A DNA stretch of 64,000 bases from Alphaproteobacteria bacterium (GCA_963665325.3 CAXXWS020000004.1:308794-372793); one strand, 5' to 3'. Counted from the stretch's first letter, positions 40,177 through 63,390 are shown. Translations and numbers: made by a program. Notes: generated by a model not told the origin, from the sequence alone.

Positions 40177-40198
40177 ATTCGAGTCAGCGGAACGTGAT

Positions 40199-44408: not shown

Positions 44409-44469
44409 GTACCAAACATCCCGTCCGGGCCTGAAGCCGCCGGCTTGTCTCGGCGGAACCTCCCGAGTG

Positions 44470-46191: not shown

Positions 46192-46309
46192 CGGGTCGAT
46201 CCGGGCAGGGGGCGGAACAGCATTGCAAACTACTCGTTGCGATTTCGGCAGCGGATTCCTGGAGAGGTCGAGGTCCCGGCCGATCCAAGGTTGGCTTCTC
46301 CCGTTGGCG

Positions 46310-46498: not shown

Positions 46499-46618
46499 CT
46501 TCCGATCTCCTCTTCCATTGCGGCCCGATCGGAAGGAGGCACGGGGAGTGCCCGCTCTGTCCGCGCCGGCCATTCTGCGACGCGTGCAACGCCGCGAATG
46601 GTAAGCATGCGTTCCGCA

Positions 46619-47917
46619 TCAGAACTGGCGCACGAAGGAGAGCTCGGCGCGGTTGCGCTTGTAGTCGAGGGCTTGGGCGTTGGTCTCGCGCTCCTCGCGG
46701 ACAAGGCTGATGCGGGGGCTGAAGCCGAACACCGTCACGGCGCGGTTGTGGACCGAGACCGAGAGCGTCTGCGTCTCGTCCTCGCGAGGCTGGCGGTCGA
46801 TGGTGTTGTGGGCGAAGCCCCGCCCCTCGTATCCGGTGCGCTGCAGGGAGCCGCGCAGGCCGAGGGTGAAGCCGGCTGGCAGCGCCAGCGACGCGCCCAG
46901 GCTGGCCTGCGGGCCGCGCGAGCGCCAGTGTTCGGAGTTGGTGCGGCTCCAGTTCCAGCTGGCATTGCCGCTGAGGCGCAGGATCGGCAGCACGGCCCAT
47001 GTGGCTCCGAGCGAGACATTCCCCTCCGGGCCGTCGAGATGGTTGCAGTCGCGGCAGTTGCGCCGGGCCGCGCTCGCCCGCCCGAACATCGCAAGACGCG
47101 GCGTCAGCCGGTGCTCGCCTTCCAGGCGCAGGCCGAAGCGGTCGGTCTCGGGCCTGCCGGCGGTCCACTGCCGGTCCATGGTCGCCAGCAGGCTTGCCTC
47201 CGTCCTCGCATCGATCGACCGGCGCGGGCCCAGATGCGCCGAGAGGAAATGACGGTCGAAGTCTCCGCCCTTGTATTCCCGGATGCTGGCGTTGGCCCCG
47301 GAGCGCAGCCGGAGAGTCTGTGAAAGCGGATACTGGTATTCGCCGCCACCCCAGACCGAGAGGCCGAGGCCGGACTTCGGCGCAATGTCGCCCTGGCGCG
47401 TGAAGGGCAGGCGACCGAAGGGCGTGTCCAGGACGATCGTGCGTTCGCCGGAGGCGGCGTTCAGGTTGCTGTCGGGGGCCACGGCCATGCCGAAGCTGGC
47501 CTCCCAGCGCCGCCGTGCACGCATGGTGCGCAGGAAGCGGACGATATTGGCGACCACCGGGGGCGGCGGTCTGCCGGCCAGCACCTGCTCGAAATGCCTT
47601 CGGGCAAGCGTGTCCTCCTCTTTCAGGAAGAAAGCGCGGGCAAGTTCCAGACGCACCCGCACAAGCTCCGGGCGGTCCACCAGAATGGCGCGGAAGGCGG
47701 CGATGGCCACGTCGAGCTTCTCGTCGCGGGCGTCGCGGTCCGACGCGGCATGGGCGGCCGCGAGCGCCCCCATGCCGGCCCGGAAGCGCCGGTCGGTGGC
47801 CTCGGCGGCGCCATCGCCGCCTTTCGCAACATTCGCCGCGTCCGGACCGGCATAGGCGAGCGTTGCAGTGACGAGGATGAGAAGGCAGGCGACGATGATG
47901 AGGATCAAGAAGCGCAA
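46619..47917 (-). CDS. Slam/T11SS translocon, allele B
   Basis: Same length and N-terminus as allele A; barrel differs (WEASFGMAV vs WEAHFGAAI, RQPREDETQ vs REPREDETR). Confidence 0.85.
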   Translation of the reverse strand: MRFLILIIVACLLILVTATLAYAGPDAANVAKGGDGAAEATDRRFRAGMGALAAAHAASDRDARDEKLDVAIAAFRAILVDRPELVRVRLELARAFFLKEEDTLARRHFEQVLAGRPPPPVVANIVRFLRTMRARRRWEASFGMAVAPDSNLNAASGERTIVLDTPFGRLPFTRQGDIAPKSGLGLSVWGGGEYQYPLSQTLRLRSGANASIREYKGGDFDRHFLSAHLGPRRSIDARTEASLLATMDRQWTAGRPETDRFGLRLEGEHRLTPRLAMFGRASAARRNCRDCNHLDGPEGNVSLGATWAVLPILRLSGNASWNWSRTNSEHWRSRGPQASLGASLALPAGFTLGLRGSLQRTGYEGRGFAHNTIDRQPREDETQTLSVSVHNRAVTVFGFSPRISLVREERETNAQALDYKRNRAELSFVRQF

Positions 47918-48033
47918 ATCACGTTCCGCTGACTCGAATGAAAGAGGCCCACGGGGGCGGTGCCCCGCGGGCCTGGGTAGTCCCCCGCGCCCCGGCCGCC
48001 GGAGCGGCCGGGGTAAAGGTCCGAACAACGCCG

Positions 48034-49551
48034 TCAGTTCGGCGGGTTCGGGTTCGTGATATTGGCGCCGAACGCGCCGAGCATCCGGCCCTGCTCGCCG
48101 AACTGGGCATCGAACGCGCCCGAAACGCCGGTGGGCAGATCGTCGTTACGGCTCGCGCCGGTGGTGGAAAGCTGCGCTTGCCAACCGCCCGCCCTGTCGG
48201 CCTTGCTCGATCCGACGGCCCATTGGGTGGTGGTACCGGTTCTCGCTACCGAGCCGTCGCTGGTGTCGATGGCAGTTTGCGACAGCGTCACGGTCCAGTC
48301 CGGGTCCGCGCCGTCATCGCCGATCCGGAAGGCGGAGACCGAGCCATTCATCATGTCGGTATCGAAGTTTGCCGACAGCGCAGCCTTCGCCGTGAAGTGG
48401 CCGCCATGGGCGGTGTCCGCGACCCGGTCCCGCCAGGCATACTTGCCGGCGGCGGCGCCTTCATAATCTGCCGTGCCGGTCAGATCGGTGACAGCGCCCA
48501 CGGCGGTGCCCCCCTGCGGTCCGTGGAACACCGCGACGTTGTCGAGCAGATTGGAGGACGTCTTGTCGTCCCTCATCCACCACCCGAAGGACATGTAGGC
48601 GCTATCTGCGAGCGAGACCATCGCTCCGGTGTTGGCGGTGAACATCCAGCCGCCGCCGCCCCCGAACGTGATGGTGCCATTGGCATTCACCGACGAGGAG
48701 CAGTCGGCCCCGGTGCACTGGTAGGACCCGGCGGCGCCTTGATAGGTGCCGGGCAGCCTCACGATAGTCGGGGGCGCACCCGGAGTCGCACTGACGTTCG
48801 GCTCGTGCTCGACCGTGCCGCCTTCGCGCCCGTTGAAGGCCGTGCCCGCAACGCCACTATGCGCGGTGGTTGACAAGGCCAGCACCTGATCGTTGCCGCC
48901 ATACTGCTCCGAGAACAGCCTGCTACGCGGCGCTGCGATGTCGGTGTAGACGAACATCGTGTCGGCCCTGGTCGCGTCCTCCCAGGTCAGCATCGTTCCC
49001 GAAAAGCCATTGTTCGCGGCAAGGCTCACCGATGTTCCGGCCTGCGCGCTCGTGAAGGCAGTGTTGGCCGTTGTGTCGATCCCGGCGGCGGTAAGAGTGT
49101 TGACCCACGTCATTTGATTGGCGGCGGTCACCCGTGTCGTCGCCCCGTGCCTCGCCGATACAGTCGGCGCGGCTGCGGCAATCGTTGAATCTGCAGCGGT
49201 GGTCGCATCGCCCAACGGGTCGAGCACGCCGAAGACGGCCTTGCCCTGTGCCGTCATGGCCGCTCGCGCGGCGTCGGCGATCTCTTTGTCACGGTCGACG
49301 ATCTGCCCCCGCAGAGCGGACACCTGCCCCTCCAGATCGGACACGCTGCCGGTCAGGTTGTCGATGTCGATCGGATCCAGCCCAAGCTCCGCCCGCAGCG
49401 CGTTGATCTGCCCTTGAAGCGTGGCGATCTGCTCTACCTGTGTCGCGCCGTCCGTTGCCGACTGCGGCGAACTTCCGCCGCCTCCGCAACCTGCAAGCGC
49501 CAAGGCCGTAGCGGTCATCGCCGCGATAGCCCAATGTTTCATGGTTCTCAT
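48034..49551 (-). CDS. Surface lipoprotein (T11SS cargo), copy B
   Basis: Translation identical to 38565-40082. Confidence 0.8.
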   Translation of the reverse strand: MRTMKHWAIAAMTATALALAGCGGGGSSPQSATDGATQVEQIATLQGQINALRAELGLDPIDIDNLTGSVSDLEGQVSALRGQIVDRDKEIADAARAAMTAQGKAVFGVLDPLGDATTAADSTIAAAAPTVSARHGATTRVTAANQMTWVNTLTAAGIDTTANTAFTSAQAGTSVSLAANNGFSGTMLTWEDATRADTMFVYTDIAAPRSRLFSEQYGGNDQVLALSTTAHSGVAGTAFNGREGGTVEHEPNVSATPGAPPTIVRLPGTYQGAAGSYQCTGADCSSSVNANGTITFGGGGGWMFTANTGAMVSLADSAYMSFGWWMRDDKTSSNLLDNVAVFHGPQGGTAVGAVTDLTGTADYEGAAAGKYAWRDRVADTAHGGHFTAKAALSANFDTDMMNGSVSAFRIGDDGADPDWTVTLSQTAIDTSDGSVARTGTTTQWAVGSSKADRAGGWQAQLSTTGASRNDDLPTGVSGAFDAQFGEQGRMLGAFGANITNPNPPN

Positions 49552-49640
49552 CGAACCTCTCTCCTTTCAACCCGGGCCGGCCGCGCCAGCCGGGCAAATT
49601 GTCTTGATCGTTCCTTCGTGATGTCGATTGCCGCGCAGGC

Positions 49641-50714
49641 TCAGAAGCCGATCGTGATGCCGGTCACGAAGCCGTTGCCCTCGACGCTGCTGCCGGCAAT
49701 GTTCTCGTCGTCATCGCCTTGCACGGCAGTCATGCCGCGGTCCCTTTCGGCGGCGAAGAGCGAGCTTCTCCAGGCAACACCCGGCGCCAGCGTGTAACCG
49801 ACGGAAAGCAACGTCCCCGACTGCTCGTCGCCATCGTCGGCATCGGCCACGGTGTGGCTGAGGCTGATCGACATCGGGCCATCCGTGTACATCGCACCGG
49901 CGGTCATCACGTCGGTGTCCTTTCCGGTGTCCGCATCCATGCCGTCGTCTTCCACCGCATAGGCGACATCGAAGCTGAACGCGCCCGTGCCGACATTGAG
50001 GCCGAAGTTGGAATAGGTGTAGTCGGTGGCTCTCTCGTAGTGGCCGAGCGAGACCGCGACATTGGCGCCGCCGAAATCGCCCTTGTAGTTGCCGCCGACC
50101 GACCAGGCGTCGTTGTCATTGTCCGTCAGGGGAGCGGTCTGGGCTTCCTGCCCGATGTTCGGAATGTAGGTCACGCCGAATTGCACGCCGCTCACGCGCG
50201 GCGAGAAGTAGGTGACGTTGTTCTTGTCCCCGAGGCCGTGGCCGGCAGTGCCCATGCCGCCCGGTCCGCACCCCTTGATGCCGTTGATCCAAGACGCGAA
50301 ATCGCCGCAGACCATGCCGAAACCCGCATCGCGCACGCCGTGATGGGTCAGCACCGAAGCGCCGTCCTCCGCGCCGAGCGTGATCTGGCCGAACTCGCCG
50401 CCCACCGTGAGCTGCGACTCGTCAACCGGGCTGCTATGGGTATTGCCTTCGATCTCGACCTTGACCGAGAAGGTCAGGCCGTTGTCGGATTCCAGCTTGC
50501 CCCTGAAATGGATTTCGCTGTCGGACTGCTGGGCGACGCCGCCCTCGGTGGCCGGGTTCGCCGTATCCTCGACGCTGGATACACCGAACCATTGCTGCAT
50601 ATAGCCGCCGACGCCAACGCTCAGCATGTCGGCCGCCGAGGCCGGCCCGGCCGCCAGCGCGCCGGCAAAGGCCAGCGCAGAGGTCGCAAGCAGGGTTTTT
50701 CTCATAATCCCCAT
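49641..50714 (-). CDS. Porin, copy B (with native AGGAG RBS)
   Basis: Identical to copy A; upstream GTAGGAGAATGGGGATTATG. Confidence 0.88.
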   Translation of the reverse strand: MGIMRKTLLATSALAFAGALAAGPASAADMLSVGVGGYMQQWFGVSSVEDTANPATEGGVAQQSDSEIHFRGKLESDNGLTFSVKVEIEGNTHSSPVDESQLTVGGEFGQITLGAEDGASVLTHHGVRDAGFGMVCGDFASWINGIKGCGPGGMGTAGHGLGDKNNVTYFSPRVSGVQFGVTYIPNIGQEAQTAPLTDNDNDAWSVGGNYKGDFGGANVAVSLGHYERATDYTYSNFGLNVGTGAFSFDVAYAVEDDGMDADTGKDTDVMTAGAMYTDGPMSISLSHTVADADDGDEQSGTLLSVGYTLAPGVAWRSSLFAAERDRGMTAVQGDDDENIAGSSVEGNGFVTGITIGF

Positions 50715-51023
50715 TCTCCTACTGTTTGAGCGCGCTAACATCGGCACGCACACACTCTCAAGCGGAGCGCATGGCAGTTATAGCCGATTCGGTCCGAGAC
50801 AGGCAACGGCATACAGGCCGGCAAGCCGGCAAACCTACCGTAAATCCCCCGCCATGGCAGACTTGCCACAGATTCCGGGGGGAGAGCGGGAAAGAGGACA
50901 AATTCTTGAGAATTTTTGTGGTTTGCGCTGGAAAAATTCTTGTGGTGTGTTCGGCGCAGAGGTTGTCGCCGCCGTGCCGAGGCTGGAGGCAGCCGGGCAG
51001 GCCGACCTGAAAGGACCCCCTCC

Positions 51024-51503
51024 ATGCCTTATATGAACATGAAATTCCTCCGCTCGTTCCTGGCGTTTGTGGACTATCGGAACGCTACCCAGGCCGCCGC
51101 TAGCCTGAACATCGCTCGCCACAACATCGGGTCCCATGTCGGCTTTGTCGAAAAGCTGGTGGGCAAGCAGCTGCTCGAAGCGCGCGCATCTCGCCCGGTT
51201 CCGGCCGGCGAGGCCGTGCGAACGCAGCTGACTGAAGCCGGGGTTGCATTCTATTCGAAGGCGCTCACGGCGATGCAGGCGCACGATGCTATGTTCGGTG
51301 CCGCCGAGCGGATTCCGGCGGACTCGCACATCATCCGCCTGACCGCAGTGGCCGGGCTGCTCGAACTGGCGCTCGATACGGCGCGGAACAACCTTTCGGA
51401 CACGGACCAGAAGCTGCTCAACGCGCTCCTGTTCGAATCCGAACTGGAAACCACCGGCGTTCCGACGGGCCGGTTGCACAGGAGCGACGGAACGCCCGGC
51501 TGA
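51024..51503 (+). CDS. Short LysR-type HTH regulator lacking a full substrate-binding domain
   Basis: NMKFLRSFLAFVDYRNATQAAASLNI...VEKLVGKQLL...QLTEAG; divergent from the porin operon. Confidence 0.75.
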   Translation: MPYMNMKFLRSFLAFVDYRNATQAAASLNIARHNIGSHVGFVEKLVGKQLLEARASRPVPAGEAVRTQLTEAGVAFYSKALTAMQAHDAMFGAAERIPADSHIIRLTAVAGLLELALDTARNNLSDTDQKLLNALLFESELETTGVPTGRLHRSDGTPG

Positions 51504-52242
51504 AGCATTGCGGTGGGGCATGACCGTCAGCAGTCGGGTCCGGACCGTACTCGCGCGCAGCCCTTCCCGGTTTTCCGTCCCAACATAATGACCGTTTCGG
51601 CCTTTCCGGGTCGTCGCGACAGCGGCGACCGCGATAACCGCCGTCCCGGCAATGCGCCAGACGAGGCGGGTTCCCGGGACGGCGAGGTCAGCCTTCGTCG
51701 CCATCGCGGCGCGGGCGGCCCCGGCTTCTTCAAGGTCTGCAACCCGCAGACCGGGCCCGGCGGCCGGGCCGCTGTCGGGACCTCCCCGCCCGCGTTCCTC
51801 GGCATGCGGCGACACTTGCCGATTGTTGCCTTCGTCGTCCGGGCGCAGGGGAAATCCGCGAGCACCCGTTCAAGCGCCTGTTCGTCGGTCAGGCCCTCGC
51901 GGACGGCGGTGCCACCCGGCGCGTATCCTCTCCGCAACCAAGATGCGAGGCCGGAAACCCGGCAAACGCCCGAGAAAACGCCGCCTCGTCCGCGATGTCC
52001 CCGACACGCGACCGGCCGCATGCTGTTGAAGCCGGACCTGGCGCCCGAAAGATCAAACCGCCGTCCGCGGGCACCGGATACGACCTGTCGTCGCCGACGA
52101 ACCCGCATTGTCCTCGCCCAGACCGGGAACGGGGGTTCGGAAAGAGCACATGCGTCGAGTCCGGGGGCGGTGGCACTGCCCCGATATCGTTGAACGCGGC
52201 AACGGCAACCCTCCGGCAGCGCCCCGGGCTCTCCCGGGGTTT

Positions 52243-52331
52243 CGAACTGTCCCCGTATGCGGGGAAACGCCTCGCGATTAGCAATGCCAACTCACTGATC
52301 CATGGGTCTATCCCCGATCAGCGGGGAATGT
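52243..52331 (-). CRISPR. Type I-E mini-array: two degenerate repeats, one spacer
   Basis: Minus strand ACATTCCCCGCTGATCGGGGATAGACCC, spacer ATGGATCAGTGAGTTGGCATTGCTAATCGCGAGG, CGTTTCCCCGCATACGGGGACAGTTCG; resembles GTGTTCCCCGCGCCAGCGGGGATAAACCG; ~61-nt period; ~150 bp after cas6e. Confidence 0.8.
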
Positions 52332-52479
52332 CATTCATGCCGGAAGCCCGGCGGCCCTTCCGCAGTCGAATTCGATGTCCCGGTCTCACCGCCCGGACAC
52401 CGGTTCGCCTTCACTCCATTCCGCTCCCTTCAACATCGGGCAGCCTGACGACGAATACGACGATCGCAAAACGTCTTCG

Positions 52480-53274
52480 TCAAGACTGCGACAATATCCG
52501 ACCCGGAGGCCGCAGCAGCAGCATACCGTACCCGTAGGCGCAATGCCGACCGATACCCCGTTCCAGCAACTCGCCGAACCCGGACCCATCCGAAATCGTG
52601 ATCGCTCCCTGAATCGTGGTGTCCGGTCCTTCCACGCCCCCATTCCGAGCGGCCCGATCACGCCGGAAACCCGCCAAACGGCTGGATGCACGGTCCAATG
52701 TCACCCACGGCGTCAGCCGTTCCGACAGCCAATCGAGATAAACCGCTTCGCGCGTTCGTCCTGCCTTTTTCATGCCGTCCGGGTCCGCTCCGAATTCCGT
52801 CAATACCTCCAGCATGAACGCGTCCAGTTCAGCGCCTGCCTTGTATGTCCTGCCGTTCGCGGTCTCGAGGTCCCCGGTCAGCCTGCGGACCGGTCTTGCA
52901 CGCAGGTCGAATCCCAGTTTCTGGCCGACCCGCCATTCCCCGGGCATCGTCTTGCTCTGCATTGCTTCGGTCCGCAGCACGGCAAGATGATCTGGCAAGG
53001 CGTAGCAGCGCGCCCGTCCGGCAAGCTCCTCGGCATTGCATCTCGAGTAGGCGTACAGATAACCCGTTGCCCGCCGGGGTGGAACGAGCAGGCGGAACGG
53101 GCGCAATAATCCCGGGCCCAGGGCTTCATCCAACAGGTGGTGCAGCGCCCGGCCTTCATCGAAATCGAAGAGCCTTCCACGGTGCCTGACCCATCCGCGT
53201 TCGTCCGCCCATAACCCGAGGGCTTTCGTCTCCATGGGAACCCGGACGAGGTAGAGTGGACCCCGTTCCGTCAT
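52480..53274 (-). CDS. cas6e: Type I-E Cas6e (CasE/Cse3)
   Basis: LGFDLRARPV, VYLDWLSERL, G-loop GIGRHCAYGYGMLLL. Confidence 0.93.
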   Translation of the reverse strand: MTERGPLYLVRVPMETKALGLWADERGWVRHRGRLFDFDEGRALHHLLDEALGPGLLRPFRLLVPPRRATGYLYAYSRCNAEELAGRARCYALPDHLAVLRTEAMQSKTMPGEWRVGQKLGFDLRARPVRRLTGDLETANGRTYKAGAELDAFMLEVLTEFGADPDGMKKAGRTREAVYLDWLSERLTPWVTLDRASSRLAGFRRDRAARNGGVEGPDTTIQGAITISDGSGFGELLERGIGRHCAYGYGMLLLRPPGRILSQS

Positions 53275-53993
53275 GGGGCCTCCCTTGCCGGGAGGGTGCC
53301 TTCGACCACTCTGCGCGAGCCGCCGTGCAGTCCACGGAGCCAATTTCGCCGGTCCTGCAGGTCCCGTACCCTGCCGGCGCTGTCGAGTTTATCCTCCGGT
53401 CCTTCCCCGGCCGGCCAGAGTGCACGGCATCCCCGCCCGATGCTGGGCAGTGCGCAAAGCGCCCCGTAGACGTTCCCGGCCACCACCCAGCGCGCCGCGC
53501 CGGGATCCAGCAGGGGCGTCGAAGGCAGGCACGGCTTTCGCCCGAGGAACAATGGCCGAGCCGGGTGATCAAGCGCCCGGGCAATCTCCTCGATTTGCGG
53601 AGGGTCTTCGGCCGGATCCAGACGCAGTACTAGCGTCACTGCCGCGTCTGCTTCGTAATCGCGCCGCCTGCGGTGCGGGGCCGCGTAGCTTGACCCGGTC
53701 CGACCTTCGGGCGAGCCACATGTGGTCCATCCCCAATCCGTCCGGTCGAGCAGCACATTCTGCACATCGGTCAGCCTGGTTCCCTCGCGGTCGCGGCGGG
53801 CACCGAACACAAGTCGGTCTTGGAGGGACTGGAGCGAGTTACGGTCCCGGTAGTCCCAGCCCAGGGCATTGCCGATCAGTCCCGCCAGCATTGAAGATCC
53901 GGGAAAGTCCCGTACCGGTCCCCAATGGTCGACCGCGACATCTCCGAAGGCCATCAGCGGGGCCTGCAGCCTCAGGACCAGCCAACGTCTCAC
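53271..53993 (-). CDS. cas5e: Type I-E Cas5 (CasD)
   Basis: LRLQAPLMAFG, FPGSSMLAGLIGNALG, RDYEADA, PLFLGRKPCLPS. Confidence 0.95.
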   Translation of the reverse strand: MRRWLVLRLQAPLMAFGDVAVDHWGPVRDFPGSSMLAGLIGNALGWDYRDRNSLQSLQDRLVFGARRDREGTRLTDVQNVLLDRTDWGWTTCGSPEGRTGSSYAAPHRRRRDYEADAAVTLVLRLDPAEDPPQIEEIARALDHPARPLFLGRKPCLPSTPLLDPGAARWVVAGNVYGALCALPSIGRGCRALWPAGEGPEDKLDSAGRVRDLQDRRNWLRGLHGGSRRVVEGTLPAREAP

Positions 53994-55141
53994 GGCATGT
54001 CCCTTGCGACAACACCCGCAGCCCACTCGGCGATATCCGCCAGCGATCCGCGTTCGGAGCCCGGGATCGCCTCGTCTGCAAGCGACATGAACCGCCGTTC
54101 CTCTCCGGTCGCATAGACATCGTCCAGAGCCCGCAGGTGCGAAGCCAGTGCGGCGACGGCCCGTTCGACATTCGCCGGGCATGGGGTGCGCCAGGCTCCC
54201 GCCAGGCTGCGCGGTTGCCGGCGTCCGGCCTCGAGCAGCATGAAGGCGGCCCGCCCGTAGGGTGCGGTCGAACCCTGCTTGGCTCCGGGAGAAATTTCGG
54301 CGACCAGATAGACGAGATTGTGCAGCACCCGGCCCGCTAAATCGGCATCGTCTCCGAGATTCGAAACAAGTCCGTTCAGGTCAACGACGACATAGCCGTA
54401 GAATAGGCCGGAAGTCAGTTCGGTTTCGTGCATGAGATCGGTCGACGGCTCGTCTGCCGCCAAATCGTCGACTGCCGTCAGGAAGTCGTACTCCGCTTCT
54501 TCCGCATGTACCGTGAAAGCGTGGGCGACATGCACCGGGGCAGTGATATTGGCGGCCGGATCCGAAGTGACCATTCGCCCGAACAGCGCCGCCGCCAGTC
54601 CACCGGGCAGCGCCGTCGCTTCCCGCATGGCCCGGAAATTCGCATGGTAATCGTCGCGCCAGGTCTTGGCCGCCTTTGCCGCCAGTTCCGCGGCTCGCTC
54701 AACGTCTCCGTCTCCGGCATCGAGCGCGGCATTCGCGAGGCGTTCGGTTTCGCTCCTGAGCCAGTCGATCTCCGGAGCGCCCAGCAGCAGGGTCTGGCGG
54801 GACTTCTTCTCGACTCCCCGCGGCCCGTAAACGGCCGCCTGCACTTCCGGTTCCAGGGCTTCGACGATTTCATCGGGAAATTGTTCGCGAAGCGGTTTCA
54901 TGACCTTGGTTGTCACCAGCTCGCGGGACCTGAAATCCTCCGTCACGCCCGCGATGCCATACAGGGAATGCACGTCTTCGGCATGCCGCCAGTGCCGCTT
55001 GAGGCATTGCGACGACACCCTGGTGCGCAGCACGCCGCCAAAGGGAAGCCGTTTCGCCAGTCCGCTGTCGTCCCGGTTCAGCAAGGCGGCGGTATAGGCG
55101 CTCAGAGTATGGATCTGGAGAAAACGCGGTTGCGCTGTCAT
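53990..55141 (-). CDS. cas7e: Type I-E Cas7 (CasC/Cse4)
   Basis: LNRDDSGLAK, RVSSQCLKRHWR, ALFGRM, VAHAFT, TAVDDL. Confidence 0.96.
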   Translation of the reverse strand: MTAQPRFLQIHTLSAYTAALLNRDDSGLAKRLPFGGVLRTRVSSQCLKRHWRHAEDVHSLYGIAGVTEDFRSRELVTTKVMKPLREQFPDEIVEALEPEVQAAVYGPRGVEKKSRQTLLLGAPEIDWLRSETERLANAALDAGDGDVERAAELAAKAAKTWRDDYHANFRAMREATALPGGLAAALFGRMVTSDPAANITAPVHVAHAFTVHAEEAEYDFLTAVDDLAADEPSTDLMHETELTSGLFYGYVVVDLNGLVSNLGDDADLAGRVLHNLVYLVAEISPGAKQGSTAPYGRAAFMLLEAGRRQPRSLAGAWRTPCPANVERAVAALASHLRALDDVYATGEERRFMSLADEAIPGSERGSLADIAEWAAGVVARDMP

Positions 55142-55720
55142 TCAGGCCGAGCCCTCTTCGTTCGCTGTTTCCGTCTTCCATTCGGCCCGGTCCAGGCGCC
55201 GGTAGTAGGCCCGGGCCAGAAACGGACCGTACCTCTCGGGCAGCAGCAGGGCATAGGCAATGTCCGGGACGTTCACGCCGCTTCCGGGAACGATCGTTCT
55301 CGACAGAGAGCGGGCTGCGCGCTGGAAAAGAGCCGCGCGCTGCGCCCCGTGCGTTCTCATGAGCAGCGCCAGCCTTCGTTCGCTCAGCGCCGGGTAGGGA
55401 CGCTCGGCATTCCCTGGCCATCCCGGGTCGCCTCCGTCGCACAACACCGCACCGAGACGCCGCGCCCCATTGTGCAGTTGAATCCCTTCGCGCGGCGTCA
55501 GAATGGCAAGTGTGCGGACGATCGCCATCCACTCTCTTTCGCGGTCGGACCGCCCGATCGTTCGGGGGTGTCTCGATGCGAGCCTCCAGAAAACGGGAGC
55601 GCCGACACCGCCGCTCATTCGCCCGAGTTCGGCCAGCGGACCGGGTCCGAGTTGCCGGAGCGTCGCCGCCGCCGAAAGGGCGGCCTTGCCGATGTCGTTA
55701 TTTCCGACGTCGTTACACAC
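55142..55720 (-). CDS. cse2: Type I-E Cas11 (CasB/Cse2)
   Basis: GPLAELGRM, LSERRLALLM, LARAYY; between cas8e and cas7. Confidence 0.85.
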   Translation of the reverse strand: MCNDVGNNDIGKAALSAAATLRQLGPGPLAELGRMSGGVGAPVFWRLASRHPRTIGRSDREREWMAIVRTLAILTPREGIQLHNGARRLGAVLCDGGDPGWPGNAERPYPALSERRLALLMRTHGAQRAALFQRAARSLSRTIVPGSGVNVPDIAYALLLPERYGPFLARAYYRRLDRAEWKTETANEEGSA

Positions 55721-57230
55721 GAGCCGATTTCATCGCATGTTCGAACAGTTCGGGAAATTCCCGTCGAACCATGTTGGCAAGCGCCCGATCCGCACGCGCA
55801 TGCGCCGCGGCCCGCTTCAGCGCCGGGCATCTCATACCGGGCAGCGCCATTGCGAACTCCCGCTGCGTGACTCTCCAGAGAGTTTCTAGAAACTCGAACC
55901 TTGCGTCAGCATCTCCGAAACGGCGCAGGAGGTAGGGGAAGAACATCCGGTCCGCTGCGTAGTGCAGCCTGCCTTCCGCTTCCCGGGCCCGGGCAAAGTG
56001 TTTCGCGCCGACCGCTTCCGGATTTCCCCCGGCGGCCGCCAGGGCGAGCGAGTATCCCAGCGCCCGCTGGAATTTATCGATTTCCTCCATTTGGGCTCGC
56101 GCCTCTCCCGCCGCATCGGACGATGGCGGGAGCGTCTTCCCCGCCGGCATCGCCACGATACGCGACTTGAACCCCTCCGTCTTGCCGGGGCCCCGCGACA
56201 GGGCTTCAGCGATGAGCACCATGTCACGGCCCTGCTCCACTTCCCCCCGCTGCGCCAGGACCGGAAGGGTCCAGTCGCCCGAAAAGAGAAGCTCACACAG
56301 CTTCGAATAGTCGAGCCGCGCTTCCCCCACCGTCAGGCTCTTCCGTTCCTTCCTGTGAACCGGCGCCCAGGGATCGCCTACGTCTCCCCTCCAACGCCTG
56401 GCGTCGATCCGCGCAGCACGGGATGTCGACCCGAACGCGAGGAACCTGCCGCCCTTCTCGACGAGGCGTACGCGGCGGCAGACTTCGATGAACCAGGGAT
56501 CCAGGCTTGCAAGGTCGAGCTGCTGTCCTTCGGGCCAGTCCAGACACCAGAGCGCTGCTGGGCCGCCGACCGTTCCGCGCGAAGCGCCTTCCCCTGCCGC
56601 GCGCTGCTCCAGGAGGCGCCCGACGTCGCGCGCCCACCACGCTGACGGATCCAGCGACAGGTCTACTCCTCCCCTCGCCGGCGCCAGTCCGACAAGGGGA
56701 CGGCTCGCATACCCCCCGTTCATGCGGGCGATCCCGTTCTTGCCGTTGCCGCTATATCCGCTCATCGTTTGCAGGCACACCAGCGCCAGAATCCAGTCTT
56801 CCGCCGTGGCCCGCCGGTTGACCGCCCGTTTCACGTCATGGTTGCGCGCCGTAATGAGGACGTCCAACGCGTCCGGCGTCTCGATCGCTCTCCACCTCAG
56901 TCCGCCGGGGTCCGGAGGCTGCAGGAAGGCTGGAAGGTCGGGCTCCCGGGCGACGAGTCGCCAAGGCGCGTCGCCGGGATAACTTGGGACAAGTCCGCGC
57001 AACATTCCGGCCCATACACCCGGCTGCTGCGGCAGTTGCCTCCGCCCCGCCTGCCAGAGAGCAAAAGCGGCGAGCTGGACCAAGAACATGTGCCAGGGCG
57101 CCCGCTGATGCGCGCGCAGCGACGGAAATTCAGTCACCTCCCCACGTGTCATTGCCGCAAACAGTTCCGGTAGGGAAACCCTTCGATCGGGCCGAACGGC
57201 AATTGCCCCGTCGGTTATGAGATTGACCAT
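55713..57230 (-). CDS. cse1: Type I-E Cas8e (CasA/Cse1)
   Basis: MVNLITD, LRAHQRAPWHMFLVQLA, AFLQP, FIEVCRRVRL, GDPW. Confidence 0.9.
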   Translation of the reverse strand: MVNLITDGAIAVRPDRRVSLPELFAAMTRGEVTEFPSLRAHQRAPWHMFLVQLAAFALWQAGRRQLPQQPGVWAGMLRGLVPSYPGDAPWRLVAREPDLPAFLQPPDPGGLRWRAIETPDALDVLITARNHDVKRAVNRRATAEDWILALVCLQTMSGYSGNGKNGIARMNGGYASRPLVGLAPARGGVDLSLDPSAWWARDVGRLLEQRAAGEGASRGTVGGPAALWCLDWPEGQQLDLASLDPWFIEVCRRVRLVEKGGRFLAFGSTSRAARIDARRWRGDVGDPWAPVHRKERKSLTVGEARLDYSKLCELLFSGDWTLPVLAQRGEVEQGRDMVLIAEALSRGPGKTEGFKSRIVAMPAGKTLPPSSDAAGEARAQMEEIDKFQRALGYSLALAAAGGNPEAVGAKHFARAREAEGRLHYAADRMFFPYLLRRFGDADARFEFLETLWRVTQREFAMALPGMRCPALKRAAAHARADRALANMVRREFPELFEHAMKSARV

Positions 57231-57668
57231 TTGTCGCTTCCCGCACAATGTTCGTTACGTTCGCCGCCGCCGTCGAGGGCGCATTTCGGTAACCGTGAAA
57301 ATACCCTCTGCGAGTTGAGGGCCGTGCGTGCGCCGCCTCCCAAGACAAGGGAGTGGATGCCCGTCATGTCTCCAGGCTGTCTCTTTTGAGACCGCATCCA
57401 GAAGTCTGAAGGCTTCGAGCCCAGGATCATCGGGGTCGGCTTCTCGCTAGCTTGTGGCTGGCGCAAACCTGAAATACCGCAGAGCCTGCCCCCGGGGCTC
57501 GAAGCCGGCAACCCAAGAAGCTCCCGCGGTCCGTCGTAATGAGAAACCGAACGGATTCCGCCAGTGTGAGCCCTTGACCTATTCTTGCAAGCCCCAGTAG
57601 ATGGAGCGCGTTCTGGAATGCTGCGTTCCTAGCGTTTCCGCGCGCAGGTTGGAAACGAATGTAAACGA

Positions 57669-57890
57669 ATGTACACCACAACACAGATCATCCAAGGGTT
57701 CCTGGCTGGCAGCCTCACGCGAGAAGAGGCGATGCACAAGCTGCATATGTCCTCATACTCCCAACTGCTGAACGCATTGGCCGACCGCGGAGTAGAACCG
57801 CCGAAGCCGCCTCCCGAACAGGTTCGAGCGGAGCTGGAAGCGGCGAGGCCGATCCTGCGCATGATGGAGACCAATCGTCATGGCTCTTGA
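57669..57890 (+). CDS. Small putative antitoxin (UPF0175-like HTH)
   Basis: 73 aa, GSLTREEAMHKL....QLLNALADRGV; overlaps the PIN gene. Confidence 0.6.
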   Translation: MYTTTQIIQGFLAGSLTREEAMHKLHMSSYSQLLNALADRGVEPPKPPPEQVRAELEAARPILRMMETNRHGS

Positions 57891-58464
57891 ACTCGCCATT
57901 CCCGACAGCGGTCCTCTGATATCTCTGGGCCGGGTGGCTCGGCTGGACCTGCTCGATCGGTTCAACTGCCCCATCGTGATTACCGACATGGTCGCCGATG
58001 AGGTGCTACGCGGTTTACCGGGCGCGCCGGACGCCGCAGTCTTTCGTGACTGGTTCAGCGGCCGGGGCAACAGGATCCAGACGGTAGAGACAAGCATTGG
58101 GATTCTCTGGAGCGCAATACCTCCCGAGCGGCGAGATATCCTGAAGAGGATCCGGGACGCCGGTGAGACGTCGATCTGGCAATTTTCCAACACGATCAGG
58201 GAAACCATGGGTCCCGGCGATTACGGCCTCCTTCTGTTCGAGGAGAGCCGGGTAAAGACGATGGATTTCGGGCCTCGCCTTGCGAAAATCACAACTTGGT
58301 CGTTTCTGATTGGACTGGAGGAAATGGGTGCCATTCCTTCAGCTGAAGATTTCCATCGGGATATTGCGGACGCCAACCGGATAATTCCGAAGGACCCTTT
58401 CGAGTACCGAGCGGAACGTGCGGAACCAGGCACAAGTTGGACGGACATGTACGACATGACATGA
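57880..58464 (+). CDS. PIN-like domain protein (DUF3368-like)
   Basis: IPDSGPLISL...LDLL...VITDMVADEV...DAGETSI. Confidence 0.7.
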   Translation: MALELAIPDSGPLISLGRVARLDLLDRFNCPIVITDMVADEVLRGLPGAPDAAVFRDWFSGRGNRIQTVETSIGILWSAIPPERRDILKRIRDAGETSIWQFSNTIRETMGPGDYGLLLFEESRVKTMDFGPRLAKITTWSFLIGLEEMGAIPSAEDFHRDIADANRIIPKDPFEYRAERAEPGTSWTDMYDMT

Positions 58465-58615
58465 AGAACACTGGGGGAGGAAGCTTGGCAAAGACCCCTG
58501 GCGCGGTTGTGCTGACCGACAACCGGGAGGACCTTGTCGACGGCTTCACGCCTTCAGTGCGGTACCGGAGGCGCTTAGAATTTCGAGGAAAACTGAGACG
58601 GCGGGGTATCCGGGG

Positions 58616-59536
58616 TCAGGACCAGCGATCCAGACCGGTTTCGCGCACAGCTGACCGCACCCTGTCGTGATAGCGCTTCTCGGTGTCCCGGGCGGCCTGC
58701 GGACGGGTCTCCCAAGCCTCGTTGCAACGGTTCAGGAACCGGTCGGTGTTTTCTGTAGCCGCTTCCAATTCCTCTTTCAGGAGAAAGGTGAGTTCGTTCT
58801 CCTCCTCGGTGAACGACCCTGCGGTGCTGTTGCCCTCTGAAAGCGAGAGGTTATCGATAAACCGCCGACACGATATTTCAACGAGATCCACGGCTCCGGA
58901 CGACAGGTCATCCTGCCAAGTTTCCGGGATGACGGCGCCAAGCATGGCCGCGAACGCCACCTCGGGCAAGGGACGTGCTTCGGACTCCGCCAGATGCTTC
59001 GTGTGCTCGAAAAGGCCCATTACCGCGACTGGCGGGTTCGCGATCCCGCGTGCCGAAAAGTGCCTTGCGAGCACCTCCCTGTAGATGGTTCTGCGGTTGC
59101 GGCTCGCCAGCACATCGATCCCGTGCACCCAGGCCTGAGCGTAGATCTGCTGATCGTTCCCGTTCCTGTCCGTGAAAGCGGCGCTCGGCAGGGCGGCAGC
59201 GGCGTGACGGTAACTCTCACTGCCCAGATCGGGGAAAAACAGGTAGGCTGTATCGTTGCGTAGGGATTCTGCCCGCCACCACTCATATGCTGCATCGCTC
59301 GCAGCCACCGCGGCGGCGTCGGTTTCCTGCGGGCTCCAGTTCCGGTTACGCCTGCGGTATCCCTGGATGTGTTCCGAGGCTTGCATCGGCAAGTGATTCT
59401 CAAGCTCCCGATGCACCATGGGCAAAATGGCGACGGACCGCCCGCGCAACTCTTCCAGGGCGGTCAGATACCGGCGCGGCGTGGGCTGGCGGATGATATT
59501 GGTGTCAGCCGCAACTGCCGCGCGGAGGCCGGTCAT
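58616..59536 (-). CDS. PIN-domain protein with C-terminal helical extension
   Basis: AADTNII, VHRELE, NDQQIYAQA, VLASRN. Confidence 0.65.
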   Translation of the reverse strand: MTGLRAAVAADTNIIRQPTPRRYLTALEELRGRSVAILPMVHRELENHLPMQASEHIQGYRRRNRNWSPQETDAAAVAASDAAYEWWRAESLRNDTAYLFFPDLGSESYRHAAAALPSAAFTDRNGNDQQIYAQAWVHGIDVLASRNRRTIYREVLARHFSARGIANPPVAVMGLFEHTKHLAESEARPLPEVAFAAMLGAVIPETWQDDLSSGAVDLVEISCRRFIDNLSLSEGNSTAGSFTEEENELTFLLKEELEAATENTDRFLNRCNEAWETRPQAARDTEKRYHDRVRSAVRETGLDRWS

Positions 59537-59910
59537 TCGTATGCCGCCCTGGCGAGCGTCGCGAGCCGCTTCCGGTCGGCCTGACAGGCCTCATACAGCT
59601 TCATGTCCCCCACCTCCCAGGCCCGCATGGCCATTTCGAAGGGCGTAAGCTCGCCATACTCGCGGAACATGTCCAGCGAGGCCTCCACATAGGCCGCCCT
59701 CTCCGGTGTGGTCCCGAGAACTGGAATGACAGCGTCCCGGATTGACCGATGCAGACGTGCCTCGCTCTCTCTGGCTTTGACGCCGGCGATTTCCGAAGAA
59801 GCCACGAGCCCTCTCCTGTCCGTCGGTCCCGGTTGCCGTTCCTGAACGCCAAATATGACCTTTGAGGCCGCTGACGACAAGCGATGAGACCGGCCACAGG
59901 AACATAACAA
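59533..59910 (-). CDS. Hypothetical protein coupled to the PIN gene
   Basis: ATGA overlap; start uncertain. Confidence 0.45.
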   Translation of the reverse strand: MLCSCGRSHRLSSAASKVIFGVQERQPGPTDRRGLVASSEIAGVKARESEARLHRSIRDAVIPVLGTTPERAAYVEASLDMFREYGELTPFEMAMRAWEVGDMKLYEACQADRKRLATLARAAYE

Positions 59911-60059
59911 GAGCGGGCCGGCGGTATTGCGTGGCTCCGATACTCCCGACGCCTCTAGAACCGCACCGAAAGCGTGAAGCCGTCAATCTATTTTTGTAAA
60001 TCCCTTCGAGAAGGACCGCTATTCTAGCGCCATCCTGAGTGTCGTGCTGGTCGGCGACA

Positions 60060-60545
60060 ACCACCTGCTCGCCAAGCTGCGCTGTCCCGACTTCCAGCCC
60101 ATCGCATCGCGCATCCGACAGCGTCTCGCCATGACGCGTGCCGAACCGAAATTCCCGCTGAGCGGCGATGACCGGCAGGACCTTCTCGACGACTGTCTTT
60201 CCTTCTGCGGGACGGTCGCTGTGCCGGAGCCCCCGTCGAGGGCTCCCGAGTGCCGCGATCCGTGCGACCGGAAATTCCTGGAACTCGCGCTTGCCGGGCA
60301 GGCCGATGCGCTTATGACGGGCGACGGCGATCTCCTGGCGCTCGCGGAAGAATTCTGCGTGCCCATGTTGATCGACGCCGTGCAATCCGATTCGGCTGAA
60401 TTCGTTCGCGGTTTGAACGAGGCTCCCATCGATGAGATCCAGCGTGCCTCCGAGCTTCTTCTGGCGATCAAAAAGGCCGTAGTTGAAGACTATCGGCCCG
60501 GCCGGCTCCCGCTGACCGGTTCGGCGAATGTCATGACCTTGCCAG
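60060..60545 (+). pseudogene. Fused fragments: PIN toxin C-terminus plus DUF4143-type AAA ATPase scrap
   Basis: CRDPCDRKFLELALAGQADALMTGDGDLL then IDEIQRASELLLAIK...RPGRLPLTGSAN. Confidence 0.7.
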
Positions 60546-60866
60546 GATCCGCTCGTTGCCGCCTACCATCGCCATCACGGACCCCGATTTCGGCGCGCTC
60601 AGCGTCACGTCCCGGCTGGGCCAGTGCGTGATGCCGCCGTCGATTTCCTTGCGCCCGAGGCGGCGCCTGCCCGGAACTTCGCCCTCCAGCACCGACCGGA
60701 AGCGCTCGGGATCCACCGGACCGGAGAGGCCGAGCGCCTCGGCGCCCCCGACCGCACAGGCGCTGACCTCGCGGTGCGCCCCGTCGTCCTTCGCATAGTA
60801 GCCATCCTTCTCGAAATAGCGCACGCCCTGCGCCGGCGAGGCGATCTTACCGATGGACGTTACCAT
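60531..60866 (-). pseudogene. N-terminal fragment of another MOB-F relaxase
   Basis: YFEKDGYY...AEALGLSG...DVTLSAPKSGS; truncated before the HxH motif. Confidence 0.85.
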
Positions 60867-61085
60867 CGAATGCGTCCTCCCGGCTCGGTGGACAAAGCAG
60901 TCCGGCGGACGCGGAAATGCAGGGGTAGTGTCTGTCCATACGGGCTAGATATGCGCTCGCAGACCTTTGAACAAAAAGCGAATATACCTGCGTCCATCAT
61001 TGCCCTTCTGTGGCCGCAAATGGCGTCGAATGTCCTCCCGACAAGGGCTTGTATCTTGCACGGCCACGCCGTACATATGCGCGGC

Positions 61086-61376
61086 ATGATCGTCCGCTCC
61101 ATCCGCCATCGGGGAGTCCGCCAGCTATACGAGAACAATTCGTCCCGGCTGCTCAAACAGGACCTGGTGGAGCGGCTGCGCGGCATCCTCGCCGCGCTGG
61201 CCATGGCCGAGACCATGGAGGGCTTCATTCGCGATGCGGCACCCGGATGGCGGGTTCACCGGCTTTCCGGCGAGCGCCGGAACGAATGGAGCGTTTCCGT
61301 ATCGGGCAACTGGCGGATTACATTCGAGGAACGGGACGGCACAATCGAGCGCCTGAACTTGGAGGACTACCACTGA
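61086..61376 (+). CDS. higB: HigB-like toxin (RelE/ParE family)
   Basis: RSIRHRGVRQLYE, HRLSGER, SVSVSGNWRITF, EDYH. Confidence 0.92.
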   Translation: MIVRSIRHRGVRQLYENNSSRLLKQDLVERLRGILAALAMAETMEGFIRDAAPGWRVHRLSGERRNEWSVSVSGNWRITFEERDGTIERLNLEDYH

Positions 61377-61681
61377 TGACCGACAGCGGCATCAAGATGG
61401 GGATGACGCCCCCGCACCCCGGCGCCTTCATCCGGACCGAGGCCCTTGAGGAGTTGGGATTGAGCGTTTCGGCGGCGGCGCGGATTCTTGGCGTGCGCCG
61501 GGCGACGCTATCGGACTTGCTAAACGGCAACGCCTCGCTGTCGCCCGAAATGGCGATGCGGGTGGAGAAGGCGTTCGGCCTCAGCATGGACCTGCTGCTC
61601 CGGATGCAGGCATGGCATGACGCGACGCAGATGCGGGCCCGGGCCGACGAGATCGACGTTCGGCGCTATCAGCCAGCATGA
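61376..61681 (+). CDS. higA: HigA antitoxin
   Basis: PPHPGAFIR, LSPEMAMRVEKAFG, LRMQAWHD. Confidence 0.93.
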   Translation: MTDSGIKMGMTPPHPGAFIRTEALEELGLSVSAAARILGVRRATLSDLLNGNASLSPEMAMRVEKAFGLSMDLLLRMQAWHDATQMRARADEIDVRRYQPA

Positions 61682-62067
61682 TTGTCGCAGCCAAGCGCAG
61701 GCAGAGCGTGCCTAGTTCTGGCAACTCATTGATTCCATACAAGAAATACCCCGATACGCCGTTTAGCAAGGCTTGTCCGCAGGGTCAAGTTCTCCTTCCA
61801 AGGTCACCGAATCCGGGAAGGCGGAAGCGATGCAGCAAGACGGAAACGGCCGGGAACGGGCGCCATCGTACGGCCCGACCGCGAACGACAACCTCGGCTC
61901 GAAGGTCGGGACTGGCGGTGGGCCGGAAGCCCGGATCGAGGACGCGGTGATGCATCTTGCCCGGCTGCTCGGGCGGCTGATCGCGCGCGGACGGTTCGCC
62001 CGGCCGGAAGCCGCCAACGACAATGCGCCGGAGAAGGAGGCGAACGACCGATAGGAGACCCGAGACC

Positions 62068-63390
62068 ATGCCCCTTCGCTGCGCGCTCCATGCCCGTTAT
62101 TCGTCCGACCAGCAGCGGGCGGCGTCCATCGAGGGTCAGTTCCGGGTCTGCCGCGAGCTTGCCGAACGCGAGGGCTGGAAGATCGTCGTCTGTTATCGCG
62201 ACGCGGCCATATCGGGCGACAGCGTGATTCTCCGCCCCGGCGTCCAGGGGCTGCTTGAGGACGCAAGGCGGGGCCTGTTTGAGGCCGGGATCGTCCGGCG
62301 CATCTTCCGGGAGTTCGCTCAGGGGACCAGCCCGCGCGCGATCGCGCGGCGTCTCAACGAGGACGGCATCCCCGGCCCAAGGCCAGGCTCTGGACCGACT
62401 CCGTCCTGCGCGGCCACGCGAAGCGGGGCACCGGGCTGCCAACAACGAACTCTACATCGGCCGTATGGTGTGGAACCGCCAGCGCTTCATGAAGAACGCG
62501 GACACCGGCAACCGGGTCGCGCGGATCAACACCGGAGGAATGGATAATCGCCGAGGTTCCCGAACTCCGCATCGTGGACGGCGAACTGTCGCGGGCGGCG
62601 AAGGCCCGGCAGGGGGAAATCTCGAAGAAGTACGCCACGTCCATCGCGGCCACGCGCGCGGCCAATGCCAACCGGCTGAACGGCACCCACCGGCCCCGCT
62701 ATCTGCTGTCGGGCCTGCTCGAATGCGGCGTGTGCGGCGGCTCCTACGCAAAGCGCGGCCAGGACCGCTACGGCTGCGCCAACCACGTCATGTCGGGATC
62801 GTGCGCCAACAGCAGGAGCATCCGGCGCGTCGAGATCGAAGAGCGGGTCATGGCGGGGCTCAGGGAGAAGCTGATGGAGCCCGAGGCCGCCGCCGAGGCG
62901 ATGTGAAGGCGTATGCCGAGGAGCTCAAGCGCGAGCGCCGCGCATCGGGCGCCACGGACCGGAAGGAGCTTGCCGACATCGAGAAGAGGATCAAGGCCAT
63001 GGTCGCGGTGATCGAGGATGGCGCCTATGTGCGGGGCAATGGAGCGCATGCGCGAGCTTGAGGCCCGCCAGGACGAGATCAACGAGCGTATCGCCGCCGT
63101 TCCGGCCGGCATGCCCGACATCCACCCGAAGATCGCGGACATCTACCGGCGCAATGTGGCGCGGCTCGCCGAGGCGCTGGCCGACCCGCGCGACCGCGAC
63201 GAGGCGGCGGAGGCCATTCGCGGGCTGATCGAGCGCATCGTGCTCGCCCCCGGCGAGAAGCGCGGCGAGATGAACGCCGCGCTGCATGGCGACCTCGGCA
63301 CCATCCGCAAATGGGCCGGGAACGGCAGCCGGAAAGGGGGGCGACCGACACTCCGCAGCGCGGAATGTCGGTCTCGGTGGTAGCGGGGGA
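62068..63390 (+). pseudogene. Large serine recombinase, internally deleted and frameshifted
   Basis: HARYSSDQQ...SIEGQ; jump to IVRRIFREF..IARRLN; YLLSGLLECGVCGG zinc ribbon; IRGLIERIVL spread across several frames. Confidence 0.88.

Follow-up and report, generated by a model that had tools for sequence, protein, structure and literature searches.

A type I-E Cascade without cas3, cas1 and cas2 in an alphaproteobacterial genome: a single-spacer mini-array, a recurrent porin–lipoprotein–Slam neighbourhood and a possible role in gene regulation

The 64,000-nt stretch of DNA analysed here (GCA_963665325.3, CAXXWS020000004.1:308794-372793; hereafter, the window) is the terminal part of the 373-kb contig C5 of an Alphaproteobacteria bacterium, the genome of which consists of five contigs (5.58 Mb, ~67% G+C). 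The window carries an operon of a type I-E CRISPR effector complex (Cascade) that is not accompanied by cas3, cas1 or cas2 and is followed by a mini-array of two repeats and one spacer. The five genes cas8e-cas11-cas7-cas5-cas6e are located on the minus strand (57230..52480), are translationally coupled and have intact frames, and a frame check found no internal stop in any of them. Frames and junctions bear out the intact coupled operon described in a first-pass annotation of this DNA, in which the strand was not stated.

The large subunit gene cas8e (55713..57230) encodes 505 aa from an ATG codon, or 511 aa from a TTG codon at 57248. The small subunit gene cas11 (55142..55720, 192 aa) begins with GTG. 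The other genes encode the backbone subunit Cas7e (53990..55141, 383 aa), Cas5e (53271..53993, 240 aa, no extra domain) and the endonuclease Cas6e (52480..53274, 264 aa), which processes the CRISPR RNA (crRNA). The cas8 stop lies over the cas11 GTG start in an 8-nt overlap, the TGA of cas11 abuts the ATG of cas7, and the cas7/cas5 and cas5/cas6 overlaps are GTGA and ATGA, respectively. Cas7 matches TIGR01869 (302.9 bits, cut-off 178) and PF09344 (300.8 bits), and Cas5 matches TIGR01868 (179.1 bits, cut-off 69) and PF09704 (120.8 bits). Cas6e matches PF08798 (82.8 bits, cut-off 25) and, below the cut-off of 45.2, TIGR01907 (38.5 bits). The set is that of a type I-E effector operon, although Cas8e scores 51.8 bits against TIGR02547, under the NCBIfam cut-off of 70, and Cas11 has no family match in the Pfam and NCBIfam profile search. 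More than 1360 Cas8e homologs were found, some of them labelled Cse1/CasA by the source records. The name of Cas11 rests on its position and on tblastn matches of 32–57% to its counterpart in complete loci, a small gene located between cas8 and cas7. Family scans detected no HNH or PD-(D/E)xK insertion in the Cascade proteins of the window; Cas5 matches Cas5 families only, and neither it nor the 192-aa Cas11 is an HNH-fused subunit, as had been noted earlier.

The host genome is 100% complete by marker genes. A tblastn search of window positions 44001-64000 with queries from complete relatives found neither cas3 nor cas1, in accordance with the first-pass annotation, and the whole genome gave no match to cas1_ECOLI or Cas2e. 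The type I-E Cas3 protein query found one gene only in the whole genome (E=4e-6), the Cas3g of a type I-G system on contig C4, which is also the best match of the cas3_core family. Apart from this protein of a separate type I-G locus, the genome has no Cas3, which excludes a cognate cas3 in trans. Thus, the genome-wide check for cas3, cas1 and arrays that had been proposed returned no type I-E cas3, cas1 or cas2. The type I-G system is complete and lies outside the window (C4:818,800-829,000; loci L008 and L103); it includes Cas3g, Csx17, Cas7g and Csb2, a repeat array (at least 12 repeats, each ~37 nt long), and Cas1 on a 601-aa open frame beside the array.

The locus was compared with its relatives in a set of 94 loci for which the Cas8 match was long, comprising the best 80 of 368 genome loci, metagenome loci, two copies from a genome of the same genus (G009; L097 is the first copy and L098 the second) and the window itself. 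In 67 of the 94 loci, cas3 is immediately upstream and cas1 immediately downstream; contig ends cut most of the others. Relatives at 44–56% identity are nearly all complete type I-E loci; NCBIfam confirmed three Cas3 and two Cas1 proteins taken from complete loci. Seven copies have Cas8 proteins at least 86% identical: two in the host genome, two in G009 (91% and 88% identical to the window) and three on metagenome contigs (L110-L112, 86–87%). None of the seven has cas3 or cas1 in the available flanks (tblastn), and the whole-genome search of G009 revealed no type I-E Cas3 and no Cas2e. The loss of cas3 and cas1 is therefore old and clade-wide and not a fresh deletion, which answers the question about the closest homologs raised at the first reading. 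The similarity of the window to the G009 copies stops at the borders of the module, at 51022-57344 for L097 (93.5% identical) and at 52307-57233 for L098.

The ratio of nonsynonymous to synonymous substitution rates (dN/dS) was determined pairwise among five copies (the window, L097, L098, L111 and L112; dS up to 0.5), none of which has a broken frame. The values range from 0.11 to 0.36 (cas8 0.21–0.36, cas7 0.11–0.20, cas5 0.16–0.24 and cas6 0.14–0.24), with cas11 at 0.41–0.78. The Cascade genes are under purifying selection. The window largely keeps the columns with at least 95% conservation in a set of 63 complete loci: 95/105 in Cas8, 19/21 in Cas11, 134/147 in Cas7, 64/64 in Cas5 and 52/54 in Cas6. 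With a cas3 in trans, a recent deletion and a dN/dS near 1 all excluded, a functional, non-cutting, fixed-guide complex is favoured. The clade is rare among 400 other sampled genomes of the same class, since none of them gave a Cas8 match at E<=1e-120. Parts of the stretch were found in 20 of 23 public sequencing runs, none of them recorded as RNA, spread over eight studies, and six runs hold at least half of it; the contigs from these runs represent near-identical copies. One of them (run X2; 3311 nt, spanning 50684-53994) has 21 differences and no gap, and none of the differences listed lies in the mini-array.

The mini-array (52332..52243) takes the place downstream of cas6e where cas1–cas2 usually stand, as the first-pass annotation had it. 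It starts 147 nt past the cas6e stop on the same strand, after a leader-like stretch (52333..52479) that is alignable in all six compared copies. Repeat 1 (52304..52332) has the type I-E hairpin and an 8-nt 5' handle ending in CCC, which is identical to the handle in the long arrays of complete relatives. It is followed by the single 33-nt spacer (52271..52303) and by the degenerate repeat 2 (52243..52270), in which the type I-E hairpin is kept and which supplies the 3' hairpin. Both the hairpin and the 5' handle thus match the repeats of complete type I-E relatives, and between clade copies, the stems are constant while the loops vary. The mini-array would yield a crRNA. A search for a sigma-70-like promoter, and for a terminator in the stretch that separates cas6e from the array, found neither, a result that is uninformative at such a G+C content; the fold of the whole array transcript (z=-0.91) is likewise uninformative.

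The spacer is homologous throughout the clade. In the first G009 copy, it differs from that of the window at 3 of 33 positions; in the metagenome copies L110-L112, it is 21 nt long, 12 nt shorter than in the window; and the second G009 copy has two 21-nt spacer variants. In this second copy (contig C3 of G009; L098 9952-14160), an IS21-type element with IstA- and IstB-like open reading frames (ORFs; 10647-13090) is located inside repeat 1 with identical five bases on either side, and the remainder of the array, with the two 21-nt spacers, lies 4.1 kb off. Two-repeat mini-arrays with spacers of ~18–29 nt are also present in the independent Cas3-less loci L029 (14690-14900), L118 (6885-7080), L056 (14380-14560) and L063 (5040-5220). 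L029 and L118 have homologous ones, and several of these short spacers hold an internal palindrome.

The array is followed, on the same strand, by a set of three genes. The first encodes a porin (49641..50753; PF13609 Porin_4, 121 bits); the second, a 505-aa surface lipoprotein (48034..49551) with a lipobox, a coiled-coil N-terminal part and no Pfam match; and the third, a Slam protein of type XI secretion (46619..48028; PF04575 SlipAM, 84 bits; TPR_Slam, 24.8 bits, below the cut-off of 35.2). As in Slam loci, the SlipAM barrel protein adjoins a lipobox-bearing lipoprotein. The lipoprotein's C-terminal end, inspected by eye, is presumably TbpB-like; Pfam TbpB_B_D was seen solely for the second lipoprotein in L080 (25.4 bits, below the cut-off of 26). 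Between the array and the porin, on the plus strand, a short ORF with a LysR-type helix-turn-helix (HTH) domain (50916..51503; PF00126, 28.1 bits) can be noted, which is kept with the module in L097. The porin–lipoprotein–Slam set has an inverted duplicate within the window (37403-41497 vs. 46619-50713, 97.8% identical), and about nine such porin paralogs are present in the host genome, on contigs C2, C4 and C5.

Similar sets accompany other Cas3-less loci in different arrangements. In L111, the complete set is located upstream of cas8 in divergent orientation, and the porin and lipoprotein genes of L098 have the same placement. In L029 (Thermodesulfobacteriota) and L063 (Binatia), the lipoprotein, Slam and cas8 genes follow in this order on one strand. 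L036, from which cas7 and cas5 have been lost, has a lipoprotein gene and a fragment of Slam, and L080 (Rhodobacterales) has fragments of cas3 and cas1 and a three-repeat array, followed by porin and lipoprotein genes. The Slam hidden Markov model (HMM) matched the window, L111, L029, L063 and L036, and the lipoprotein HMM matched the window, L098, L111, L063, L036, L029 and L080. In total, Slam or the lipoprotein is present in 7 of the 9 Cas3-less loci with enough flanking sequence and in none of the 67 complete loci, among which L019 gave a match at noise level (E=3e-4). An all-against-all comparison of the ORFs of Cas3-less loci showed that only the Cascade genes, the lipoprotein and Slam are common to at least three Cas3-less lineages; no conserved candidate effector enzyme was found beside the module.

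In the phylogenetic tree based on Cas8, Cas7 and Cas5 (49 rows, quick LG+G4 model), Cas3-less rows are located on long branches. The Cas3-less label requires four changes on this tree, at least three of which are forced by well-supported branches. The approximately unbiased test, for which the Cas3-less groups were named after inspection of the tree, rejects a single Cas3-less clade whether all nine rows are included (p=0.00025) or L080 is left out and eight remain (p=6.7e-7). This indicates that the Cas3-less loci beside the porin/lipoprotein/Slam set form at least three lineages and that the association arose more than once. Between lineages, Slam is 50% identical and Cas8 is 46–50% identical; given this similar divergence, an alternative to repeated recruitment is a joint transfer of Slam and Cascade with later replacement of the Cascade genes. 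As side observations, a second Cas6-like ORF lies upstream of the lipoprotein–Slam pair in L029 (5127-5882; assigned by blastp clustering only, no Pfam match), so this pair has cas genes on both sides. An apparent cas8–cas11 fusion is present in L063 (9923-12097, 724 aa) and L118 (2196-4259, 687 aa), and L056 (9920-12895) has no separate cas11 between cas8 and cas7.

The neighbouring porin is also where the guide finds its likeness. Every sixth position of the guide is unpaired in the Cascade R-loop, as known from Cascade structures. Spacer matches were therefore scored over the 15 paired positions of spacer positions 1–18, with positions 6, 12 and 18 excluded, and mismatch positions were read by eye from the alignments. 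The best match of each clade spacer outside the arrays is one and the same porin site, ~35 codons into the gene and just past the signal peptide, which encodes Tyr/Phe-Met-Gln/Glu-Gln-Trp-Ile/Val/Phe-Gly. The L111 spacer scores 13/15 at its adjacent porin (37 of 3000 shuffles reach this score); L098 spacer 1 scores 14/15 at the G009 porin L125 (2/3000), L098 spacer 2 scores 14/15 at the G009 porin L124 (7/3000), and the L097 spacer scores 13/15 at L124 (87/3000). Against three host-genome porins, L098 spacer 1 reaches 15/15, with differences within positions 1–18 only at 6, 12 and 18, and the window spacer scores 14/15 against the L111-type porin. All clade spacers correspond to the porin sense strand; a crRNA made from them would therefore pair with the template strand. 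This orientation, according to PMC4288158, silenced about 5-fold inside an ORF in E. coli, better than the other strand.

Several observations weigh against a porin target. The site in the adjacent porin of the window (50580..50600, sense strand, minus) scores only 11/15 with the window spacer and has a mismatch at seed position 4; for all nine host porins, the scores are 11–13/15, always with G against C at this position. No better site for the window spacer was found genome-wide, and 13–14/16 matches occur at chance number. The clade spacers are homologous to each other, and the four shuffle tests are thus not independent. The triplets on the side of the protospacer-adjacent motif (PAM) at the porin sites are TAT, TAC or TTT and are non-canonical; for a relative with 47% identical Cas8 (L085), two phage protospacers point to an AAC PAM for this type of repeat. 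The spacers of L029/L118, L063 and L056 have no match beyond self or control level in their own loci or genomes, and the L080 spacer scores only 11/15 at its porin start, which is noise level. As for the neighbourhood, the HMMs behind the counts of 7/9 and 0/67, and likewise the porin HMM, were built from the Cas3-less loci themselves, and L056 and L097, the latter flanked by insertion sequence (IS) elements, have no Slam or lipoprotein gene within 10 kb. Regarding L085, a complete locus of Rhodobacter capsulatus, its spacers at 16014-16047 and 17051-17083 exactly match phages RcapNL and Jorvik, and the final base of its AAC PAM coincides with the final repeat base.

No other target of the window spacer is apparent. 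In the host genome, it fully matches only the two array copies, with partial matches at chance level. Among 72,556 records of plasmids and 50,697 of phages, no protospacer was found, and only chance matches of 17–25 nt (E 3–4) occur.

A peculiarity of the porin site is the accumulation of stop codons in it. Four of the six G009 porin paralogs have exactly one premature stop, and all four stops are inside the 21-nt site; these frames are otherwise open over 353–471 codons. In three of them, TAA, TAA and TAG replace the first Gln codon (protospacer positions 4–6, C to T at 4), and in the fourth, TGA replaces the Trp codon (positions 10–12, G to A at 12). Each porin gene has 12–21 codons that are one transition away from a stop, of which 2–3 fall within the site; by our own arithmetic, the probability that three independent stops all fall there is roughly 0.01. 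The site is the boundary between the near-identical 5' part of the porin paralogs and their variable part. When L121 is compared with L125 by eye, seven substitutions are clustered in the site, and the sequence just downstream is identical. None of the nine host-genome porins has such a stop. These stops may be the result of R-loop-linked mutation, of escape from binding or of selection for the earliest polar knock-out.

The module is part of a 13.6-kb segment (50363-64000) that recurs on contig C2 (173964-187601). The two copies are identical over 51000-64000, and all 76 differing columns lie in 50363-50999, that is, in the 5' end of the porin and the region upstream of it, a pattern suggestive of sequence exchange among porin paralogs. 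Positions 60531-61681 encode a 111-aa fragment of a TrwC relaxase and, after it, a pair of a HigB-like toxin and an HTH antitoxin; a Tn5-like transposase is located at 42433-43887. Duplication on two replicons amid IS elements lends loose support to the mobile island proposed earlier, and the claim that many neighbours are pseudogenes holds in part only, for the TrwC fragment and the short LysR-type HTH ORF. Two other details of the first-pass annotation need correction. The gap upstream of cas8, given as ~430 bp, is ~650 bp from the cas8 ATG to the next accepted ORF. The two ORFs beyond it (57880-58464, plus strand, and 58616-59536, minus strand), which had been called a divergent PIN pair, have no Pfam or NCBIfam match at E<=0.01, and their N-terminal motifs are PIN-like by eye only.

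The system is probably a derived type I-E system that has been reduced to Cascade and a fixed, non-adaptive mini-CRISPR and is probably not immune. The most economical account, to which we assign a probability of about 0.5, is that this nuclease-free, fixed-guide Cascade is an RNA-guided repressor of porin–lipoprotein–Slam operons. Cas6e would cut the two-repeat transcript to a single crRNA, on which the five Cascade proteins would assemble, and in the absence of Cas3, the complex would bind DNA without cleaving it. Its natural target would be the conserved site ~35 codons into the Porin_4-family genes that head porin/surface-lipoprotein/Slam operons. An R-loop on the template strand could block RNA polymerase early in the first gene and thereby lower the expression of the whole surface-protein operon; synonymous changes at the site or in the PAM-side codon could decide which paralogs escape. 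Both the binding of Cascade at the porin sites and the resulting repression are proposed here from the sequence. Of the uses suggested at the first reading for a fixed-guide, non-cutting complex, the complex itself stands and the evidence points to regulation of the porin/lipoprotein/Slam set; it does not point to inter-element conflict or to recruitment of an unknown nuclease, and no conserved candidate effector enzyme is located nearby.

The stops in the G009 porins also allow a different explanation, which we consider rather unlikely: R-loops at the porin site might promote local mutation or recombination, so that paralogs are switched off or shuffled, as in phase or antigenic variation. 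The presence of the sole stop inside the site in four of six G009 porins, although only 2–3 of 12–21 stop-convertible codons lie there, is what such a device would leave behind, as are the clustered substitutions of L121 and the position of the site at the boundary of conserved and variable parts; the putative G009 guides also appear to match G009 porins through the seed. However, few cases are involved, the two TAA alleles may be of common descent, and Gln-Gln-Trp are the first codons that a transition turns into a stop, so selection for an early polar knock-out would give the same picture. Moreover, the host porins are free of site stops, and the module has no conserved deaminase, nuclease or recombinase next to it. 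The broader form of this idea, in which Cascade was recruited several times and its long-lived R-loop silences the operon and at the same time directs C-to-T changes or gene conversion to Gln-Gln-Trp, acting as a natural stop-codon writer or variation switch, is in our estimate just as improbable.

Slightly less probable again is that the locus is a relic of autoimmunity, in which a porin-derived self-spacer selected for the loss of cas3 and cas1–cas2 and Cascade was carried along without a role. The resemblance of the spacer to a resident gene family fits this, and decay is visible in L080, with its cas3 and cas1 fragments, and in L036, without cas7 and cas5; besides, the window spacer now matches no resident porin through the seed. 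A useless Cascade, however, is hard to reconcile with a dN/dS well under 1 and intact frames at dS up to 0.5, with the retention of conserved columns and repeat stems, and with the same gene association in at least three lineages. A role in defence or replicon competition, directed against foreign plasmids, phages or rival porin operons by binding as in type IV-A or with a Cas3 borrowed from the type I-G system, has a still lower probability. The mobile surroundings speak for it, since both host copies are on the two smallest contigs (C2, 196 kb; C5, 373 kb) with IS elements, a toxin–antitoxin pair and a relaxase fragment nearby, and a complete type I-G system is encoded in the same genome; but the single spacer is non-renewable and has no protospacer beyond chance in the plasmid and phage records, and nothing links the type I-G Cas3 to the type I-E Cas8e. 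The least probable of these explanations is a circuit of the CreR/CreA type, where the mini-CRISPR would guide Cascade to its own promoter (autorepression) or to the promoter of an adjacent toxin (addiction). Two divergent repeats around one spacer of odd length beside cas genes would suit such a circuit; nevertheless, a scan of seven loci revealed no seed-type match upstream of cas8 or beside the array, and the CreR elements in bioRxiv 10.1101/2023.03.10.532045 are described in loci with complete cas operons.

Natural CRISPR effectors that have become dedicated gene regulators are few. If the repressor reading is true, it adds to them a multi-subunit type I-E Cascade that has no genes for cutting or memory and yet is under selection, and it connects CRISPR machinery with porin operons and type XI secretion. 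The repeated association would then parallel the repeated capture of Cascade by transposons. It would also offer a testable model for the choice among paralogous surface-protein operons and, for programmable repression, a source of compact Cascades that lack Cas3 by nature, some of them with guides of 21 nt. Given the site-specific stops, persistent R-loops might shape their target genes. A literature search for links of CRISPR or Cascade with Slam or DUF560, which did not extend to supplementary tables, found none; the terms Slam, DUF560 and porin are absent from the main text of PMC10910872, the supplementary data of which may bear on Cas3-less type I-E variants.

When compared with canonical type I-E systems (complete relatives L011-L090), the window system has the same five genes in the same order, with 44–68% protein identity, and shares the repeat type with its hairpin and the handle ending ATAGACCC. 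It differs from them in that its genome has no type I-E cas3, cas1 or cas2, in that it has one fixed spacer instead of tens, which points to a resident gene family, and in its long stem branches on the tree. Francisella Cas9 with scaRNA is a functional analogue, as a fixed non-canonical guide represses an envelope lipoprotein locus via partial complementarity; however, that system belongs to class 2 and its Cas9 keeps the nuclease domains, whereas the window Cascade has no nuclease gene. A Cas3-less type I-E variant of Streptomyces is reportedly tied to a STAND NTPase; no STAND gene was found among the ORFs scanned here.

In CreR, as described in bioRxiv 10.1101/2023.03.10.532045, the 5' handle is preserved in the first repeat and the 3' handle in the second. 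The window shares with CreR/CreA, as outlined there, a divergent two-repeat mini-array beside cas genes that would guide Cascade to binding and not to cutting. In contrast to CreR/CreA, the window genome has no canonical type I-E array and no type I-E Cas3, the apparent target is inside a porin ORF, and no PAM-flanked spacer match to a cas promoter or an adjacent toxin was found within the loci. Type IV-A systems carry out nuclease-free interference, and a crRNA of Pseudomonas oleovorans regulates a chromosomal gene, according to portions of PMC11519345 and bioRxiv 10.1101/2024.06.12.598411. To judge from these portions, the likeness consists in a class 1 complex, the absence of target cleavage, a small and possibly extrachromosomal replicon and an effect on gene expression, which in our case we infer. 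Unlike type IV-A, the window system has neither DinG nor Csf proteins; its only spacer is fixed, and its connection with porin and secretion genes is conserved.

CRISPR-associated transposons (I-F3, I-B and I-E5) and HNH-Cascades (I-E2 and I-F4) are typically Cas3-less, often have minimal arrays and have been co-opted repeatedly, as stated in sections of PMC12669027 and PMC10910872, where a variant with a Cas11-nuclease (I-E3) is also described. In the window, by contrast, no transposase partner or nuclease fusion was detected, and the conserved neighbours are Slam, the lipoprotein and the porin. The scan of the neighbouring ORFs of the window returned the porin, Slam, the LysR-type HTH protein, the Tn5-like transposase, the TrwC fragment and HigBA; a genome-wide search for TniQ gave no match, but control genomes gave no match either. 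Set beside all these systems, the locus is probably a derived type I-E system with a regulatory role, joined to a recurrent partner locus that is new.

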